Assembly (NCBI GenBank): GCA_964590575.1
Contig: CAZPWM010000004.1
Coordinates: 275 to 64,274 of the forward strand
From: an uncultured archaeon
GTDB lineage: Archaea > Asgardarchaeota > Thorarchaeia > Thorarchaeales > Thorarchaeaceae
Direction of reading: 5' to 3'
Length of the DNA: 64,000 nucleotides
Below the pieces are notes generated by a model. The model ran no database searches and was not told the DNA's origin. It was given only the letters and a program-made list of their open reading frames with translations. Numbering within the stretch: position 1 is the stretch's first letter; every line of letters begins with the position of its first letter. The position numbers and the translations under genes are program-made. Positions 3,111 to 9,134 of this stretch are shown here, one piece after another.

Positions 3111-4130
3111 TCACCATCGATGAACCGTAACTTGACCATCCAAAATCTTGAGATATGACCCAGCTTCTCCAAGCCAGCATCCAGCATCAGCAACTTTGGT
3201 TTCCTGGCTGACATACGGAGTATGGCCATGACCTCTAATCAAAAATTCTTCAGAGCGTAGACCCACAGTGAGCGCAGCGGCCTCTCTTTTCTTCTGATGT
3301 ACTTCTCTTGCTAGATGTGGTGGAATAGCGCTTCTCTCAGTGTAATGGTCAAGTTTTCTAATGATTTGTTCCCACTCTGTGGCAAACTGCTCGATTTCAG
3401 TCAATAGCCTTGAACATCTAATGGCAACATCCTCGAAAACACTAACTTGTCTAAGCAACTCCCATTCGTAATGCAGACCTGTCTTTTCTCTCTCCATGTT
3501 CCCATCAAGAGGTCCTGCTAGCTTATGTTCTAGCTTGCTCTGGATATCATGAGGTAACTCTCTCACTAGACAACTTGTCTTCATAGGAAGGGTCTCTGCA
3601 AATCGATAGATGATATTCCAAACATCTGATAGATCTTCATCCTCTGTATCAACAAAACACATCGCCTGACTGAAGACTTCGTAGAAACTTAATGCAAGCC
3701 AGTAGTCTACCTGATGACCATGAATGAACTTCAACTTCAGTCCATCATCTGTCAACTCCAATGTTTCTGAAACTTGATCTAGAACACCTGATGATTCTGG
3801 AGGGCCCGATGATTCAATCTGTGATAATAGACTGAAGATTCCATAGTCATGATTTCCAACCAAGTAGTTCTTCTTCATCTCTAAACGACCAATTTCGGTG
3901 AGAATATCCAGGTTTTGCGACAGAACCTGTGAGTTCGTATTTCTCCACAAATCAAGAATATCTCCAAGCAGAACAATGTGAGAAATATCATCTTGATTTG
4001 GTTCCAAGTATTCGCTGATGAAATCTGAAAATCCCGATTTGTTCGCCATCTGACTTCCCAAGTGTAAATCTGCAACCGCGATTATCATACTTGATTCCTC
4101 AGTGGCTGTGACCATGTCCTGTTTCATCAT
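3111..4130 (-). CDS. Calcineurin-like metallophosphoesterase
   Basis: Motifs DLHLG, GDILD and GNHD in the canonical order; the start may be the MVTAT Met at 4115. Confidence 0.65.
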   Translation of the reverse strand: MMKQDMVTATEESSMIIAVADLHLGSQMANKSGFSDFISEYLEPNQDDISHIVLLGDILDLWRNTNSQVLSQNLDILTEIGRLEMKKNYLVGNHDYGIFSLLSQIESSGPPESSGVLDQVSETLELTDDGLKLKFIHGHQVDYWLALSFYEVFSQAMCFVDTEDEDLSDVWNIIYRFAETLPMKTSCLVRELPHDIQSKLEHKLAGPLDGNMEREKTGLHYEWELLRQVSVFEDVAIRCSRLLTEIEQFATEWEQIIRKLDHYTERSAIPPHLAREVHQKKREAAALTVGLRSEEFLIRGHGHTPYVSQETKVADAGCWLGEAGSYLKILDGQVTVHRW

Positions 4131-4539
4131 TCTCAGGCAAATAGAATGTGAATAATCTTACATATTCTATGCCCTTGAGTCCTGAAATCTTGTTAGCGAG
4201 TGCTTCGATAGACTTTCGGGTTCCCTTTAATGTGATGACTTCCAAACAATGACTGTGGGTGGCGTGGACATGAACAGTTGAAACCACCTGAGCTTGAGCG
4301 TCATGTTGAATCCTCGTGAGATCCGACATCAATCTCGGTTTGTGCTGATAGACAATGTTTAGACTGGCCATTGTATTCTCTTGATCTGATTCCGCACTCC
4401 ATTCAAACTGGGAGATATACTCTCGCATAGCATCACGGATAGCCTCAGACCTGCCAATGTATTCCTTCTTCTCAACCAGCTTATCGAACTTCTCCAGTAG
4501 GTCCTCTGGAACAGATACACCGAATCTCTTTAAAGCCAT
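4099..4539 (-). CDS. nikR: Nickel-responsive transcriptional regulator NikR
   Basis: N-terminal ribbon-helix-helix (MALKRFGVSVPEDLLEKFD...GRSEAIRDAMREYI) plus a C-terminal His/Cys-rich metal-binding domain (HVHATHSHCLE); start chosen at the MALKRF Met rather than the longer ORF. Confidence 0.75.
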   Translation of the reverse strand: MALKRFGVSVPEDLLEKFDKLVEKKEYIGRSEAIRDAMREYISQFEWSAESDQENTMASLNIVYQHKPRLMSDLTRIQHDAQAQVVSTVHVHATHSHCLEVITLKGTRKSIEALANKISGLKGIEYVRLFTFYLPENDETGHGHSH

Positions 4540-4635
4540 GACACGAACCACCATTAATAGTAACACGATTTCACCAGAAGTAACACACTTAAGTAAATAT
4601 TGTTGAATCCGATAAAGCGGTATGGTGTGAAAAAA
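4540..4635. promoter_or_regulatory. Divergent nikR / nikM intergenic region with two direct AGTAACAC repeats at 4559-4566 and 4579-4586; candidate NikR operator
   Basis: Repeats read directly in sequence, about 20 bp apart centre to centre; location between the regulator and its likely target operon. Confidence 0.3.
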
Positions 4636-5343
4636 ATGCATGTTCCGGATGGTGTGCTACCCCTTTGGGTCTATATCCTCTTCTTGGCCATTAGTCTGCC
4701 GATACTTGGCATAGCAATTCGAAAAGTCAACAAACGTTTTGATGATCGACTTACTCCCTATATGGGTGTACTAGCCGCTGTAATATTTGCCGCGCAATTC
4801 GTGAACTTTCCAGTTCCTCCCTCAAGTGGACATCTTGTAGGTACAACGCTTCTCGCAGTGATGCTAGGACCTTGGGCAGCAATGGTAATAATTGCACTTG
4901 TTCTCTTTGTTCAAGCTCTATATGGTGATGGAGGACTACTTGCGTTTGGTCTTAATTTCTTCAATATGGGTGTCTTAGGTGCAATTCTCGGATGGGGGAT
5001 TGCATTCATCCTTTTCAAAGGAATAACCAAGTTTCTAGACGAGAAAGCTTCTGTTCTTATTGCCGCATCAGTTTCTGCATTTATCACTGTTGTAGGAGCT
5101 GCATTCGTGCTTGGTCTTGAGTTACTGACAATTCCTGGATTAGGTTTTGAGTTTGTGTACATCATTACTGGCATTCATGCAGTCATTGCTCTCGGAGAAG
5201 CTGTTCTCACATTTGTGATTCTTCTTTATTTCGTCAAAGCCAAACCAAAGATGATTGCATTCCTAAAGGACAGTGATACTGGTAGAGCCCTCAATAGAGA
5301 TAGAACACAAGAGATTACACCAACATTGGAGGAGGCCAGATAA
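4636..5343 (+). CDS. cbiM: ECF-type Ni/Co transporter substrate-capture component CbiM/NikM
   Basis: N-terminus MHVPDG, the metal-binding Met1-His2 terminus of CbiM/NikM; seven TM helices; the track ORF from 4600 would destroy the conserved N-terminus. Confidence 0.8.
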   Translation: MHVPDGVLPLWVYILFLAISLPILGIAIRKVNKRFDDRLTPYMGVLAAVIFAAQFVNFPVPPSSGHLVGTTLLAVMLGPWAAMVIIALVLFVQALYGDGGLLAFGLNFFNMGVLGAILGWGIAFILFKGITKFLDEKASVLIAASVSAFITVVGAAFVLGLELLTIPGLGFEFVYIITGIHAVIALGEAVLTFVILLYFVKAKPKMIAFLKDSDTGRALNRDRTQEITPTLEEAR

Positions 5344-5630
5344 TGGACAGAAACACATTTGTGAGGGTAATAATCCCAGTCATAGTTTTGCTGACTGTAG
5401 TCATATCCGTTCTGATTTTTACGGGTCTGGCCTCTGAAAATCCTGATGGGTTTGAATGGGCTTTATTTGATTGGGCTGGGATTACAGAACCTGAAGGTGG
5501 GTTCGAAGGCATATTCGCCTTTCTTGGATCGGGTCCTTTAGTGGATGCGGTAACGGGCGGTATTGGCATCATTGTGATATTGATACTTGCTTACCTTTTC
5601 TTCAAGTTCACCTCTCGTAGAACAGAATGA
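5343..5630 (+). CDS. Small membrane component CbiN/NikN-like
   Basis: 95 aa with two TM segments, immediately after cbiM, 1-nt coupling. Confidence 0.5.
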   Translation: MDRNTFVRVIIPVIVLLTVVISVLIFTGLASENPDGFEWALFDWAGITEPEGGFEGIFAFLGSGPLVDAVTGGIGIIVILILAYLFFKFTSRRTE

Positions 5631-5680
5631 TTATTGCAAAATTAATTTGCAAATAGAAAGAATATCGGAGAACTAGAATA

Positions 5681-6466
5681 ATGGCCACATTCCTACTGCC
5701 CTTTGTCGAGGGCAGAGCAAATCTGCAGCGGTTTTCACCAACAGCTGTCTTGCTATCTGCAGTTGGTCTAGGCATATTCATCGCTCTACAATCAAATCCC
5801 TTTGCCGTTCTCTTTATTCTGTTGATGATATTTTCAGGTGGAATTATTACCAGAACACGATGGAGGGTAGTCCTCAGACTTGCCGCCAAGTTTGAAATCC
5901 TTATCCTATTCTGGATGTTCTTAATGCCTTTCATATACGGAGAAACGGTCATTCTCTCAATCATGCTTCCTTGGGGAATCTTGAATGCTTATAGTGAAGG
6001 TCTGACTTTCGGAATTCTAATTGCCCTCCGAATGATGACAATGTTAGTGCTATTTGTTACGACTCTATCGCATATGTCATTGACTGAGTTTATAGGTGCA
6101 TTACGAACGTTACGTGTTCCTAGTACCATTCTCGGTTCTCTTCTGATAATGCTTCGATATATCCCGTTATTTATGACCGAAAGGAAACGCATGCAAGAGG
6201 CTCAACTTTTGCGTGGCTACAATCGCGGCAAACGTGTCGAACGAATAAAATCTCTTGGATATCTGGTTGGAACAACCATCAGTCGCTCATTTGATAGAAG
6301 TGCAGCAGTATATGATGCAATGAGCCTTCGCGGATTTGGAAAAGGAACAATGGTATTGGGAACTGGATTTAGACGTTCGGACGCTCTTCTCCCAGTCATC
6401 TTACTTGTTCTTATTCTTAGTCTTCCTTTTCTAGTTACAATAATTTTTGGGGTCCTAATGATATGA
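5681..6466 (+). CDS. cbiQ: ECF transporter transmembrane (T) component CbiQ
   Basis: Polytopic 261-aa membrane protein with LRGYNRG-type C-terminal motifs; operon position. Confidence 0.7.
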   Translation: MATFLLPFVEGRANLQRFSPTAVLLSAVGLGIFIALQSNPFAVLFILLMIFSGGIITRTRWRVVLRLAAKFEILILFWMFLMPFIYGETVILSIMLPWGILNAYSEGLTFGILIALRMMTMLVLFVTTLSHMSLTEFIGALRTLRVPSTILGSLLIMLRYIPLFMTERKRMQEAQLLRGYNRGKRVERIKSLGYLVGTTISRSFDRSAAVYDAMSLRGFGKGTMVLGTGFRRSDALLPVILLVLILSLPFLVTIIFGVLMI

Positions 6467-7221
6467 CCTGTGCAATCGATATGAATCATGTCTTCTTTAG
6501 ATATGACGAATTCAAAATCGAAGATGTGAAACTCCAACTCCATATTGGAGAACAGAAAGCTCTTGCTGGATTGAATGGATCTGGAAAGACTACATTATTC
6601 AAACTCCTTCTAGGACTTCTTGAACCTGACTCTGGTGATATCTACATCTTTGATAAGAAATTAACAAAGGACACACTTTGGGAAATCAGGCAGGATGTTG
6701 GTTTCCTCTTTCAGAATCCCGATGACCAGCTCTTTGCACCTACTGTGTGGGAGGATGTTGCATTTGGCCCTCGAAACTTAGGCCTTTCTAATGAAGAGAT
6801 TGAGGACAGAGTTGAGTGGGCACTTGATAGAGTTGGAATGTCCAAATTTGTAACTCGACCTGTGAACCAGATGAGCCACGGAGAAGCAAAAAGGATCGCT
6901 TTAGCTGGTATCATAGCGATGCGTCCCAGCATCTTAGTTCTAGACGAACCTTTCTCCGGACTTGATTTTAAAATGGTCACGACCATGATAGACATCATTC
7001 AGAGACTACGTCAGGATGGTGCAAGCATACTCTTCACAACCCACAACAGTTTCTTCATTGAGAACTGGTCAGACTCTGTGGCTGTTATAAAGGAGGGTAG
7101 GATTGTTTATGATGGCCCCACAAAAGAGGCTATGAGGAGTAGAGTGGTCACTGAGAACATTGGCGACTGGAGCGGTTTAAGAAAAAAGATTGTGTCCTCT
7201 CGAAGCTCACTTCTCGATTAA
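6463..7221 (+). CDS. cbiO: ECF transporter ATPase component CbiO
   Basis: Walker A GLNGSGKTT, signature-like MSHGEAKR, Walker B ILVLDEP. Confidence 0.8.
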   Translation: MTCAIDMNHVFFRYDEFKIEDVKLQLHIGEQKALAGLNGSGKTTLFKLLLGLLEPDSGDIYIFDKKLTKDTLWEIRQDVGFLFQNPDDQLFAPTVWEDVAFGPRNLGLSNEEIEDRVEWALDRVGMSKFVTRPVNQMSHGEAKRIALAGIIAMRPSILVLDEPFSGLDFKMVTTMIDIIQRLRQDGASILFTTHNSFFIENWSDSVAVIKEGRIVYDGPTKEAMRSRVVTENIGDWSGLRKKIVSSRSSLLD

Positions 7222-7266: not shown

Positions 7267-7385
7267 GCGGAGGTTGCCAAGCCAGGTTAAAGGCGCAGGG
7301 CTCAGATCCCTGTCTCGTAGGAGTACATGTGTAGGTTTTCCCTCACATGGCCGAATCGCGAGTTCGAATCTCGCCCTCCGCACCA
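7267..7385 (+). tRNA. tRNA-Leu (anticodon CAG) with about 30 nt extra sequence, either an intron or an unusually long variable region
   Basis: Acceptor stem GCGGAGG/CCTCCGC with discriminator A and encoded CCA; anticodon stem CAGGG/CCCTG with loop CTCAGAT; T arm GCGAG-TTCGAAT-CTCGC; total 119 nt against about 88 expected. Confidence 0.75.
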
Positions 7386-7386
7386 T
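7367..7386. repeat. Copy 1 of a 20-bp direct repeat AATCTCGCCCTCCGCACCAT, the 3' end of tRNA-Leu
   Basis: Exact match with 8146-8165. Confidence 0.55.
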
Positions 7387-7535
7387 TAATTCTCCATTTC
7401 ATGTGTAGGAAACTATTGAGCAGTGTTATTGGTTATGCGATTTGTCTTTCTGTACAGATATATGATGAGTAGGTTGCCAATGATAGAGAAAACAAAACTA
7501 TCGAAAGAAGCGTTTCCGCCATCTCCGCACCACCA

Positions 7536-8087
7536 TCAGTCAATCACCCTAAATCCTGAATATCGTCTTTTGCAGGCTATCAGCCAAATAGTCACAGTGA
7601 ATAATAAGACCAAACCAACTCCGTAAACAGAAAACTGTATCCCTCGAGGATGCATGTTGGTGACAATTGTTGCTCCTAGAAGAAAGAGAATAATCTCTGC
7701 AATAAGCGCTCCTTTCAACAGCGAACATAAGATGGTCCTCTCAATCCGATAGGGCGAAAATGAATAGAGAACTCCAATAATGATCCAGAATATCCAAGTT
7801 ACACTGTGCATGAAGACAAGGTAGAATACCTGATCAACCAGTACTGCTGGAGTGATTACCGTCAAATGACCCGGTGGGCTTGGGACGGGGAAAAAACTTC
7901 CCGGTCCTCCACTAGACCATTCTAATCCTCGTTCAAAACTCCAACCCCAACTACCATACATCAACAATGCAGAGCATAGAATCCAAAGGTAGTATATTAG
8001 AAGTACCACAACTGGAAAACGATAGAGGACATTGTTTCGATTTAGAGGTTCCCTGACCCAAAACCTTGACTCCTGCGAATCAATCAT
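7536..8087 (-). CDS. Hypothetical polytopic membrane protein lying between the tRNA-derived direct repeats
   Basis: 183-aa ORF with several hydrophobic segments. Confidence 0.45.
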   Translation of the reverse strand: MIDSQESRFWVREPLNRNNVLYRFPVVVLLIYYLWILCSALLMYGSWGWSFERGLEWSSGGPGSFFPVPSPPGHLTVITPAVLVDQVFYLVFMHSVTWIFWIIIGVLYSFSPYRIERTILCSLLKGALIAEIILFLLGATIVTNMHPRGIQFSVYGVGLVLLFTVTIWLIACKRRYSGFRVID

Positions 8088-8145
8088 TCGTTACACCCTT
8101 ACTAGACATAACTCATCATATTCATATCATTCTTCTTCTATTTCA

Positions 8146-8165
8146 AATCTCGCCCTCCGCACCAT
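8146..8165. repeat. Copy 2 of the tRNA-Leu 3'-end direct repeat; att-like
   Basis: Exact 20/20 match to 7367-7386; neighbouring bases also similar (tcA vs tcG). Confidence 0.55.
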
Positions 8166-8176
8166 ATTATCTCATT

Positions 8177-8542
8177 TTAGAAGGCGGTGACTACTGCGTT
8201 GTATTCGATGCGAACCACTTCATCCATTCTAGCAATTCCAAAAATCTGCTCTGGTGTAAGGAATGCATGAAAACCACCTAGTAGCTCCCATACTTGCTCC
8301 ACAGACTCACTAGGTATTGTATCAATGACAGTATACGCATCATCAATCGATCTACAAGCAATGATGCAATCGTGTATAGTATCAAATGTTCCAGCTTGAA
8401 TTCTCTCAACCAAGTCTTGACTTAATTTGTTCTTAACATCGTCAGGAACAGACGCGCGAGTAGCTGCCCATAAGCTAAATCCAGAGAATACCAAAATTGA
8501 AGCTACAAACACTAGGAGGATGTATTTTCTCAATCTGTTCAT
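8177..8542 (-). CDS. Small secreted or anchored hypothetical protein
   Basis: N-terminal signal/TM segment ILLVFVASILVFSGFSLWA. Confidence 0.4.
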   Translation of the reverse strand: MNRLRKYILLVFVASILVFSGFSLWAATRASVPDDVKNKLSQDLVERIQAGTFDTIHDCIIACRSIDDAYTVIDTIPSESVEQVWELLGGFHAFLTPEQIFGIARMDEVVRIEYNAVVTAF

Positions 8543-8621
8543 TCGTTAAGCCCCTCATTTGAGGTATGGGCTCAAATTCATATCAACCTTTTTCCAAACT
8601 GGATATTGCAGAAATCATTCA

Positions 8622-8638
8622 GATCTCGCCTTTCGCCA
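8622..8638. repeat. Degenerate third copy of the tRNA 3'-end repeat (GATCTCGCCTTTCGCCA)
   Basis: About 14 of 17 positions match ATCTCGCCCTCCGCACCA; weak. Confidence 0.2.
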
Positions 8639-8651
8639 ATCTGTTCGAAGT

Positions 8652-9086
8652 TCATTCATCTTGAGGGAGAATGAAGATAGTTTCGATTCTTTCTACACCC
8701 TGAAGTTTCTCAAGTTCATTAGTGATGAACTTTGCAAGTTTGGAAATATCCTTGACCTGCGCCATGCAAATGAAATTAGCTGACCCAGATGTCCTGAGCA
8801 CCTTCGATATTTCGTTATATGTTGAGAGCGTTCGGTACAGAGAGTCTGACTCTCCAGGTTTTGAGGTTATCATGACAACTACCTGAACCTCATATCCGAG
8901 CTTTCTGTGGTCTAGTTCGAGAGTATACCTCTTGATGACTCCGAGATTAACCAAGCGTTCCATTCTATTTCGGATAGAACTGGGACTAAGGTCCACTACC
9001 GCTGCAATCTCTCTCAGAGAAATACGCGCATTCTTTATGAGCATCTCAATAATTGCAAGATCGCTTTCATCAATCTTTTCTGTCAT
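8652..9086 (-). CDS. Lrp/AsnC-family transcriptional regulator
   Basis: HTH region DLAIIEMLIKNARISLREIAAVVDLSPSSIRNRMERL followed by a RAM-like C-terminal domain. Confidence 0.75.
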   Translation of the reverse strand: MTEKIDESDLAIIEMLIKNARISLREIAAVVDLSPSSIRNRMERLVNLGVIKRYTLELDHRKLGYEVQVVVMITSKPGESDSLYRTLSTYNEISKVLRTSGSANFICMAQVKDISKLAKFITNELEKLQGVERIETIFILPQDE

Positions 9087-9134
9087 ACCCATGTAGAACA
9101 TCCCTTTTTTGAAGGCAATTCCTGAAAGAATGCT

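Follow-up and report, generated by a model that had tools for sequence, protein, structure and literature searches.

Small modules that are bounded by recombination sites, encode no recombinase, are mobilised in trans and accumulate in tandem are known from streptococci, as cis-mobilizable elements (CIMEs) and integrative mobilizable elements (IMEs), and from the plasmids of Acinetobacter, as pdif modules. The tycheposons of Prochlorococcus build genomic islands by serial integration at tRNA genes, with partial tRNA copies displaced in the process (10.1101/2020.12.28.424599), and integrons have been reported in archaea, including metagenome-assembled genomes (MAGs) of Asgard archaea, by Ghaly et al. 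(10.1101/2022.02.06.479319). No relatives of eukaryotes closer than the Asgard archaea are known, and by what routes genes enter and leave the large and flexible genomes of this group is an open question. Here we describe a locus in a stretch of 64,000 nucleotides from an uncultured archaeon of the Thorarchaeales (assembly GCA_964590575.1, contig CAZPWM010000004.1, positions 275 to 64,274 of the forward strand; hereafter the window), in which two small genes, open reading frame (ORF) 183 and ORF121, lie downstream of a tRNA-Leu(CAG) gene between copies of its 3' end, together with the counterparts of this locus in other Thorarchaeota. The literature searched, the coverage of which was incomplete, contained no account of arrays in Asgard archaea in which tRNA-Leu ends bound single-gene cassettes.

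On balance, the locus is probably an array of single-gene cassettes which carry their own att site but no integrase, and which were inserted serially and site-specifically into the 3' end of tRNA-Leu(CAG) by a recombinase acting in trans. Each insertion regenerated the tRNA and moved the previous 3' end, 23 nt from the T loop to CCA, downstream; since the old tRNA end is displaced every time, the ORF183 and ORF121 units are each bounded by copies, and the oldest copy abuts the gene of an Lrp/AsnC regulator (lrp). The comparison with related species shows that units accumulate serially, and that they are present in some species, absent from others and different in identity between them. The genome loci compared were seen as blocks of at most 8 kb from a species-level genome collection, locus counts are those among the matches listed, and individual loci and contigs are labelled with an L and a number. 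More than 25 Thorarchaeota loci have the gene order CbiQ-CbiO-tRNA-Leu(CAG)-[X]-Lrp-aIF5A-NADK. At locus A (CbiO-tRNA-Leu(CAG)-Lrp), for which 22 loci have both the tRNA and Lrp visible, the site is empty in 13, with 4-95 bp from CCA to the Lrp stop codon, and occupied in nine, with 466-1474 bp between the same points and differing content: ORF183 and ORF121 in the window, ORF239 and an ORF183 homologue in L007, ORF153 in L059, ORF130 and ORF96 in L128, an ORF121 homologue in L111, and a 325-aa secreted protein in L027 and L082. Clean orphan copies of the tRNA end are present at four of the nine occupied sites, the window included. The most distal copy in L007 and L059 abuts the Lrp stop just as the tRNA end itself does in the empty L028 and L060, and in an alignment of these four junctions copy 3 of the window falls in the corresponding place. 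Likewise, at locus B, where a tRNA-Leu gene has a conserved 113-aa ORF as its neighbour, five sites are empty and another five contain units, which differ from site to site; in L005 an ORF183-family unit stands where L151 has an ORF121-family unit 79% identical to that of the window. This series of empty and occupied sites is direct evidence of insertion at the tRNA 3' end, with the att segment duplicated, and of turnover of the inserted units. A preliminary description of this DNA had proposed a tRNA-targeted att insertion, either of an element since decayed or of very small cassettes in series. Both versions imply duplication of att, which the 13 empty against nine occupied loci demonstrate, and no relative was found to carry the interval without the repeats. 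Serial integration of very small cassettes fits better than the decayed element, because the units recur as single-gene units at CAG, TAG and GAG genes, without an integrase.

The same families of single-gene units are in fact reused at different tRNA-Leu loci with identical boundaries. In other Thorarchaeota, the ORF183 and ORF121 units occur as discrete single-gene units with the same boundaries and different neighbours: ORF183-family units are found in the window, L005, L007 and L010, and ORF121-family units in the window, L010, L036, L054, L111, L130, L140 and L151, the latter family standing behind genes for tRNA-Leu(CAG), (TAG) and (GAG). The margins of the ORF121 unit were compared at five loci; in three of them (window, L010 and L054) they measure 12-18 nt next to the stop codon and 74-75 nt next to the start, and the units of the window and L054 align through their non-coding margins, with homology stopping at the copies. 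A third family, encoding CxxCxxCC proteins (L010, L048, L057, L122, L129, L137, L139 and L142), forms a unit of about 545 bp that is 85-89% identical in nucleotide sequence in six contigs with unrelated neighbours, and here too the blastn matches end at the copies.

An extension of serial small-cassette integration to a Thorarchaeota-wide phenomenon is supported. The species-level genome collection has at least 115 stretches with the 19-mer AATCTCGCCCTCCGCACCA, nearly all of them from Thorarchaeota-type MAGs, with four bacterial chance matches, and the 3' end is common to all tRNA-Leu isoacceptors. Among the matches listed, 88 distinct orphan copies of the tRNA-Leu 3' end were counted in Thorarchaeota DNA, 68 of which belong to a short class that starts in the T loop; orphan copies lie downstream of tRNA-Leu and in the same orientation. 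About 70 units could be delimited overall, about 45 of them in genome loci and more in 20 metagenome contigs, which came from a scan with an orphan-only pattern. A second copy of the 3' end lies near 22 of 72 tRNA-Leu genes, compared with one of 43 other tRNAs in the same blocks (Fisher p = 1.7e-4). The sole case among the latter is a tRNA-Ser(CGA) (L013, 7285-7387), the 3' 19-mer of which is repeated within the 8-kb block, and the mechanism may occasionally use tRNAs other than tRNA-Leu. Most units consist of one ORF that nearly fills the space, with margins of a few to about 100 nt per side and a promoter-like motif of its own. They mostly measure 0.4-1.3 kb and occur in both orientations, and the longest arrays, in L129 and L147, comprise four units (tRNA, ORF182, ORF119, CxxCxxCC, ORF95). 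The cargo includes CxxCxxCC proteins, a 4HBT thioesterase, alpha/beta hydrolases, peptidases of families M20 and S9, PrcB_C and a JAB domain, besides many membrane or secreted proteins of unknown function. Some larger units carry defence-like cargo (L046, 443-2884; L134, 4425-6104; L140, 1118-1780), namely OLD-family ATPase/TOPRIM nucleases, one of which has HEPN AbiV as its partner, together with a HepT-like protein. In other units, ORFs of 220-245 aa read antisense through the copy and stop inside it, ending in ...GAEGEI (L133, 485-1148 and 1811-2549; L144, 2451-3114; L138, 3432-4143), and one array holds two paralogous units with such read-through ORFs that are 85% identical.

In the window, the exact 20-bp repeat reported in the preliminary description, AATCTCGCCCTCCGCACCAT, is present at exactly two sites, 7367-7386 and 8146-8165, against a chance expectation of 0.01, and has no further match even when up to three mismatches are allowed; the first site is a true tRNA-Leu 3' end. 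Copies 0 and 2 (Table 1) agree in register at 22 of 23 positions (TTCgAATCTCGCCCTCCGCACCA; TTCRAATCTCGCCCTCCGCACCA), copy 0 comprising the T loop, the 3' side of the T stem, the 3' acceptor strand and the encoded CCA of tRNA-Leu(CAG). Copies 0, 2 and 3 all have the orientation of the tRNA, and the orphans lie downstream of the gene. The weaker third copy suspected earlier proved to be real: copy 3 matches the tRNA end at 16 of 19 or 16 of 23 positions, its score was reached by 22 of 20000 ungapped and 1 of 5000 gapped shuffles of the 109-bp intergenic stretch, and it directly precedes the Lrp stop codon, the same place as that of the displaced tRNA end in relatives. While the copies noted at that time stand, a fourth, truncated one had been overlooked. 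This copy 1b has a gapped local score of 11, equalled by 4 of 5000 shuffles, and is homologous by position to the full copies found after the ORF183 homologues of L005 (at 1 nt) and L007 (at 3 nt). The interval between the exact repeats does hold a single real ORF, the 183-aa membrane-protein gene on the opposite strand, negative in Pfam and PHROGs, and no integrase. Nor is the repeat part of a second tRNA gene, a point that had been raised against it: an Rfam scan of 7386-8700 gave no tRNA signal. A 14/16 match to the tRNA 5' end at 7465-7480, considered as a second tRNA or pseudogene in 7386-7536, is at chance level, as is a C/D-box snoRNA-like match at 7425-7493 (E = 1.7). The 131-bp stretch that follows the tRNA contains no ORF and no Rfam family above chance, and has no homology to the unit at the same position in L007; it is probably the remnant of a further tRNA-proximal unit, left by a deletion that would also have removed the left part of copy 1b. 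Guanine-plus-cytosine content, which had been suggested as a check, is flat across the region (0.40-0.47) and was uninformative. ARAGORN reported no tRNA in the whole window, missing tRNA-Leu(CAG) because of its intron of 31 nt. This intron is non-canonical, lies at about 7325-7355 between the variable arm and the T stem, and is defined by the 88-nt intron-less orthologues in L059 and L060. It is placed just 5' of the att block, where it would split a longer class of orphans (about 45 nt; L033, L046 and L071) but not the 23-nt class.

Table 1. Features of the tRNA-Leu(CAG) locus in their order in the window; lrp is followed by aIF5A, also on the minus strand.
Feature	Position	Strand	Remarks
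cbiO (energy-coupling factor (ECF)/ABC ATPase)	6463..7221	+	Pfam ABC_tran, 2.2e-31; conserved chromosomal flank 5' of the tRNA
tRNA-Leu(CAG), with encoded CCA and intron	7267..7385	+	Rfam RF00005, 49.6 bits; insertion target (attB/attL)
Repeat copy 0, in the intact tRNA (from T loop to CCA), TTCGAATCTCGCCCTCCGCACCA	7363..7385	+	
ORF-less 131-bp stretch between tRNA and copy 1b	7386..7516	no strand	
Repeat copy 1b, truncated and degenerate, CGCCatCTCCGCACCA	7517..7532	+	3 nt from the ORF183 stop
ORF183, multi-pass membrane protein, cargo of unit 1	7536..8087	-	
Putative promoter-like motif, purine-rich/TATA-like, upstream of ORF183, GAAGAAGAATGATATGAATATGA	8116..8138	-	
Repeat copy 2, TTCAAATCTCGCCCTCCGCACCA	8142..8164	+	distal boundary of the ORF183 unit
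ORF121, membrane anchor and subtilase-propeptide (I9)-like domain, cargo of unit 2	8177..8542	-	
Putative promoter-like motif upstream of ORF121, GAAAAAGGTTGATATGAATTTGA	8572..8594	-	
Repeat copy 3, degenerate, TTCAGATCTCGCCTTTCGCCAAT	8618..8640	+	abuts the chromosomal flank
lrp (Lrp/AsnC regulator)	8652..9101	-	Pfam HTH_24 and AsnC_trans_reg; conserved flank on the 3' side

The att site is borne by the unit, and old copies decay. The consensus of the short orphan copies is WTCAAATCTCGCCCTCCGCACCA, after which comes a pyrimidine-rich stretch resembling a tRNA trailer. Copy 2 has an A at tRNA position 57, where the tRNA-Leu of the window has a G, and orphans differ from their own tRNA at this position in L005 and L054 as well; moreover, 16 of the 68 short orphans begin with A where the tRNAs invariably have T54, a difference that is linked to the unit family. 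It is therefore the unit, and not a duplicated target, that supplies the 5' part of an orphan. A unit-borne att with a differing 5' part is what an exchange between attP and attB, with the crossover inside AATCTCGCCCTCCGCACCA, predicts, and it argues against target duplication of the transposase type. A block of identity from the T loop to the end of the gene is said to have been recognised by Williams in 2002 as a classic tRNA sublocation for tyrosine integrases. When the copies and their flanks were folded as DNA, energies of -0.2 to -4.4 kcal/mol and z-scores of 0.2-0.9 were obtained, no better than those of shuffles, which rules out attC-like folding of the copies.

Both ORF183 and ORF121 are real genes under selection, and neither is a recombinase. 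The ORF183 family comprises 10 homologues with 51-68% identity, all from Thorarchaeota MAGs, and nine aligned members share 51 invariant columns; no Pfam or PHROG family was matched, and the structural model is helical, with a mean predicted local distance difference test (pLDDT) score of 64.6, that is, of modest confidence. ORF121 has an N-terminal membrane anchor followed by a small alpha/beta domain with a weak match to Pfam Inhibitor_I9 (E=0.009). Its model is a confident one, with a pLDDT of 82.9, and the best Foldseek matches are the propeptides of Tk-SP, cucumisin and subtilisin BPN', with a probability of about 1.0, together with that of PCSK9; the family has 21 homologue clusters, nearly all from Thorarchaeota. 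The putative promoter-like motifs upstream of the two genes are 83% similar, and the motif is also present upstream of the ORF121 homologues in L010 and L054. A likeness over 80 bp between the two upstream regions was considered as a shared regulatory element, and is better explained by a promoter-like consensus together with an att copy.

Directly upstream of the tRNA, positions 4099-7221 hold the gene of a NikR-like regulator and an operon for a metal transporter of the ECF type (CbiM/N/Q/O), and this NikR-like/CbiMNQO block is the conserved 5' flank in all relatives. On the opposite side, at the otherwise conserved locus of L027, an IS605-type OrfB/TnpB gene (4510-5727) lies between aIF5A and NADK. 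Further upstream in the window, in a metallophosphoesterase ORF on the minus strand (3111-4130), the 320-bp patch 3645-3963 shows 34 substitutions relative to contig L001, which is otherwise identical over 5.25 kb. The patch entails 13 amino-acid changes and mixed substitution types, and has no template repeat in the window; a diversity-generating retroelement was rejected as its cause, the patch resembling an allelic recombination tract.

No candidate for the recombinase emerged from the searches. Pfam annotation of about 100 cargo and neighbour proteins (for one set, the top 25 of 100 families listed) reported no integrase, ten unknown cargo proteins gave no match in PHROGs, and phmmer with lambda Int, SSV1 Int and XerC of E. 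coli found nothing at E <= 10 among 1450 ORFs from the window and all Thorarchaeota loci (about 1.2 Mb). In particular, phmmer detected no tyrosine recombinase in the 64-kb window, and no integrase or fragment of one is present in any of the approximately 70 units. Two proteins were considered and set aside: the 325-aa protein directly after the tRNA in L027, L032 and L082 is a secreted or membrane protein, and a 404-aa protein with multiple helix-turn-helix motifs in L072 does not adjoin a copy. A viral origin, suggested by the preliminary description as a relationship worth checking, is rejected: IMG/VR contains no viral contig with the 19-mer or the 20-mer, and the ORF121 family is absent from its viral contigs, with a single marginal PHROG match for ORF121 (E = 0.028). 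The 38 IMG/VR matches to a 15-mer core do not extend and are due to chance. An autonomous element combining the same att with a recombinase was found neither in the genome blocks nor in the 20 metagenome contigs or IMG/VR.

Conventional plasmids or proviruses, encoding an integrase, might have inserted at tRNA-Leu and later been reduced by deletions, so that a single gene remained between attL and attR. The 3' end of a tRNA is a classic target, and genomic islands are known to contain tRNA fragments that were displaced, along with degenerate remnants (10.1101/2020.12.28.424599). In the window, copies 1b and 3 are decaying and 7386-7516 resembles a deletion remnant; furthermore, larger units exist, such as one of 4.5 kb in L134 that holds an OLD nuclease, and genome loci are visible only in blocks of limited length. 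We nevertheless regard this origin as rather unlikely, given that integrase remains are missing from every unit delimited, that the ORFs fill the units almost completely, and that no IMG/VR viral contig has the site. Nor are the unit ends random: each family keeps the same margins across genomes and loci, homology stops at the repeats, and identical boundaries at unrelated loci have already been seen for three families. Such reproducible end points are not expected from random decay of larger elements. Still less probable, and indeed decidedly unlikely, is a shuffling driven by homology alone, in which general recombination or repair between 23-30 shared identical bases deletes, excises and re-inserts genes without a dedicated recombinase. 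It would agree with the failure to find such an enzyme and with orphan sites that lack a recognisable recombinase core architecture; all five isoacceptor genes share the sequence and so provide dispersed homology, and differential loss between direct repeats would account for part of the empty/occupied pattern. What it leaves unexplained is how a flanking tRNA 3' copy was first gained, why the copies constantly start in the T loop, and why left ends such as ATCA are specific to a family. Other tRNA families with shared 3' ends are almost without such copies (1/43), and 23 bases are short for efficient RadA-type recombination.

The copies might also be functional and not scars, serving as a promoter, operator or terminator, as the 3' piece of a split tRNA, or as a sequence resembling a primer-binding site and complementary to the tRNA-Leu 3' end. 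We consider this very improbable, even though many copies are perfectly conserved next to cargo proteins only 50-80% identical, antisense units show TGGTGCGGAGGG... on their coding strand, which is exactly complementary to the tRNA 3' end, and the copy supplies the last codons of some ORFs. Copies lie at varying distances from the start codon, about 10 to more than 150 nt, and units occupy both orientations; orphan copies give no signal of a tRNA-like or other RNA family and form no stable structure, and the neighbouring genes can do without them, as the empty sites show. No relationship to tRNA is seen in the sequence upstream of orphan copies, and a T-loop start is not that of a known split-tRNA half, while a role in primer binding finds no long-terminal-repeat-like sequences or reverse transcriptase to go with it. 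Copies also decay in place, in L111 and L115 as in the window, and the decay of 1b and 3 would thus make them scars that are not maintained. Finally, a transposase of the casposase or Tn7-like type that recognises tRNA-Leu could have duplicated 19-23 bp of its target, an explanation to which we give hardly any credence. Casposons duplicate about 14-15 bp at tRNA 3' ends. Asgard archaea have Tn7-like elements for which tRNA genes are the target (10.1101/2025.07.27.667033). A target duplication is at odds, however, with orphan 5' parts that differ from the adjacent tRNA and are specific to the unit family; the units possess neither terminal inverted repeats nor a transposase, and a duplication of 23 bp would be unusually long.

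Some observations also weigh against an array of single-gene cassettes mobilised in trans. Site-specific catalysis is inferred only from the anatomy of the loci, no recombinase having been found; a divergent recombinase family can escape Pfam and a phmmer search with three seeds, and larger integrase-bearing elements bounded by the same copies could be missed in blocks of at most 8 kb. The orphan copies have no conserved left arm and no inverted-repeat or hairpin structure, which is unusual for the core site of a tyrosine recombinase. Copy 1b, by position the youngest orphan, is more decayed than copy 2, so that an extra deletion is needed, and four occupied locus-A sites (L027, L043, L077 and L082) have no recognisable distal copy. 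Neither an excised circle nor an empty/occupied polymorphism within one population was seen, the only hint being that two independent metagenome contigs of the window strain end around copy 2, L148 (8098-10494) and L001 (2923-8175); these ends within 8098-8175 may reflect alternative arrangements in the population.

Under the cassette reading, each unit would carry its own att site, WTCAAATCTCGCCCTCCGCACCA, together with the pyrimidine-rich trailer-like stretch and, as an excised circle, could recombine with any tRNA-Leu gene, since the isoacceptors share their 3' end. Strand exchange would take place inside the common 19-mer; as none of the units encodes a recombinase, the enzyme would be encoded elsewhere and act in trans. 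Functionally such a system would be similar to an integron in which tRNA-Leu stands for attI and an unstructured att of 23 nt replaces attC. More tentatively, we may hypothesize that Thorarchaeota, and perhaps other Asgard archaea, possess a dedicated gene-capture system, integron-like but independently evolved, that docks at tRNA-Leu 3' ends, and in which an unlinked recombinase of an unrecognised family circulates one-gene cassettes, each with a 23-nt tRNA-mimicking att and its own promoter, within and between genomes, giving rise to several small variable arrays per genome; we hold this wider proposal to be possible, though somewhat less than an even prospect. The locus and its counterparts point to a simple and repeatable form of gene turnover, in which one-gene modules are placed downstream of leucine tRNA genes and exchanged among loci and species. 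Should a dedicated enzyme be responsible, the arrays would constitute a second system of this type, independent of integrons, and would involve a new recombinase with a short, defined site of 23 bp; should there be no such enzyme, they would show that hotspots of gene flux can be organised by short repeats of tRNA origin alone. In both cases, the 23-mer offers a practical marker for recently acquired genes in Thorarchaeota genomes.

In comparison with known systems, the likeness to tRNA-targeting elements, Islander-type islands and tycheposons is that insertion occurs at the tRNA 3' end, the tRNA is restored, a partial copy is displaced, newcomers push older insertions outward, and relatives have empty sites. 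Those elements, however, carry a tyrosine or serine recombinase of their own, often with replication genes, and measure from kilobases to tens of kilobases, whereas the Thorarchaeota units mostly consist of one gene, encode no recombinase, and belong to families that move between at least three tRNA-Leu genes. An element-borne integrase was looked for and not found, and the units are accordingly not filed as tRNA-integrating elements. Integrons, in turn, share with these loci the arrays of compact, mostly single-ORF cassettes with diverse accessory functions, a recombination site per cassette, a varying content and a preferred insertion at the head of the array. In integrons intI lies beside the array, while here cbiO is found upstream of the tRNA and lrp downstream of the array; attC is an imperfect palindrome of 50-150 nt, in contrast to an unstructured 23-nt direct copy of a tRNA end; and the role of attI falls to an essential tRNA gene, of which each genome has several copies, with cassettes inserted in both orientations and apparently equipped with their own promoters. 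Having no intI, attI or attC, the arrays are not integrons. In archaea, the fuselloviruses and the satellites pSSVi and pSSVx (SSV-type elements) likewise target tRNA genes, and their integrase-less satellites can use the integrase of a helper. In these, attP lies inside int, so that int(N) and int(C) flank the provirus, and att starts in the anticodon region; here att starts in the T loop, no such fragments are seen, the ORFs abutting the copies are cargo genes and not a partitioned integrase, and no homologue of SSV1 Int was found in the sampled DNA. CIMEs are recognisable deletion derivatives of a co-resident integrative and conjugative element, whereas no parent element is seen here, and pdif modules are bounded by inverted XerC/XerD sites, whereas no Xer-type sites are present. 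Like CIMEs, nonetheless, the Thorarchaeota units are flanked by att sites and lack a recombinase, and their nearest functional analogues are such integrase-less, att-flanked modules mobilised in trans, namely CIMEs and IMEs, pdif modules and the SSV-type satellites.

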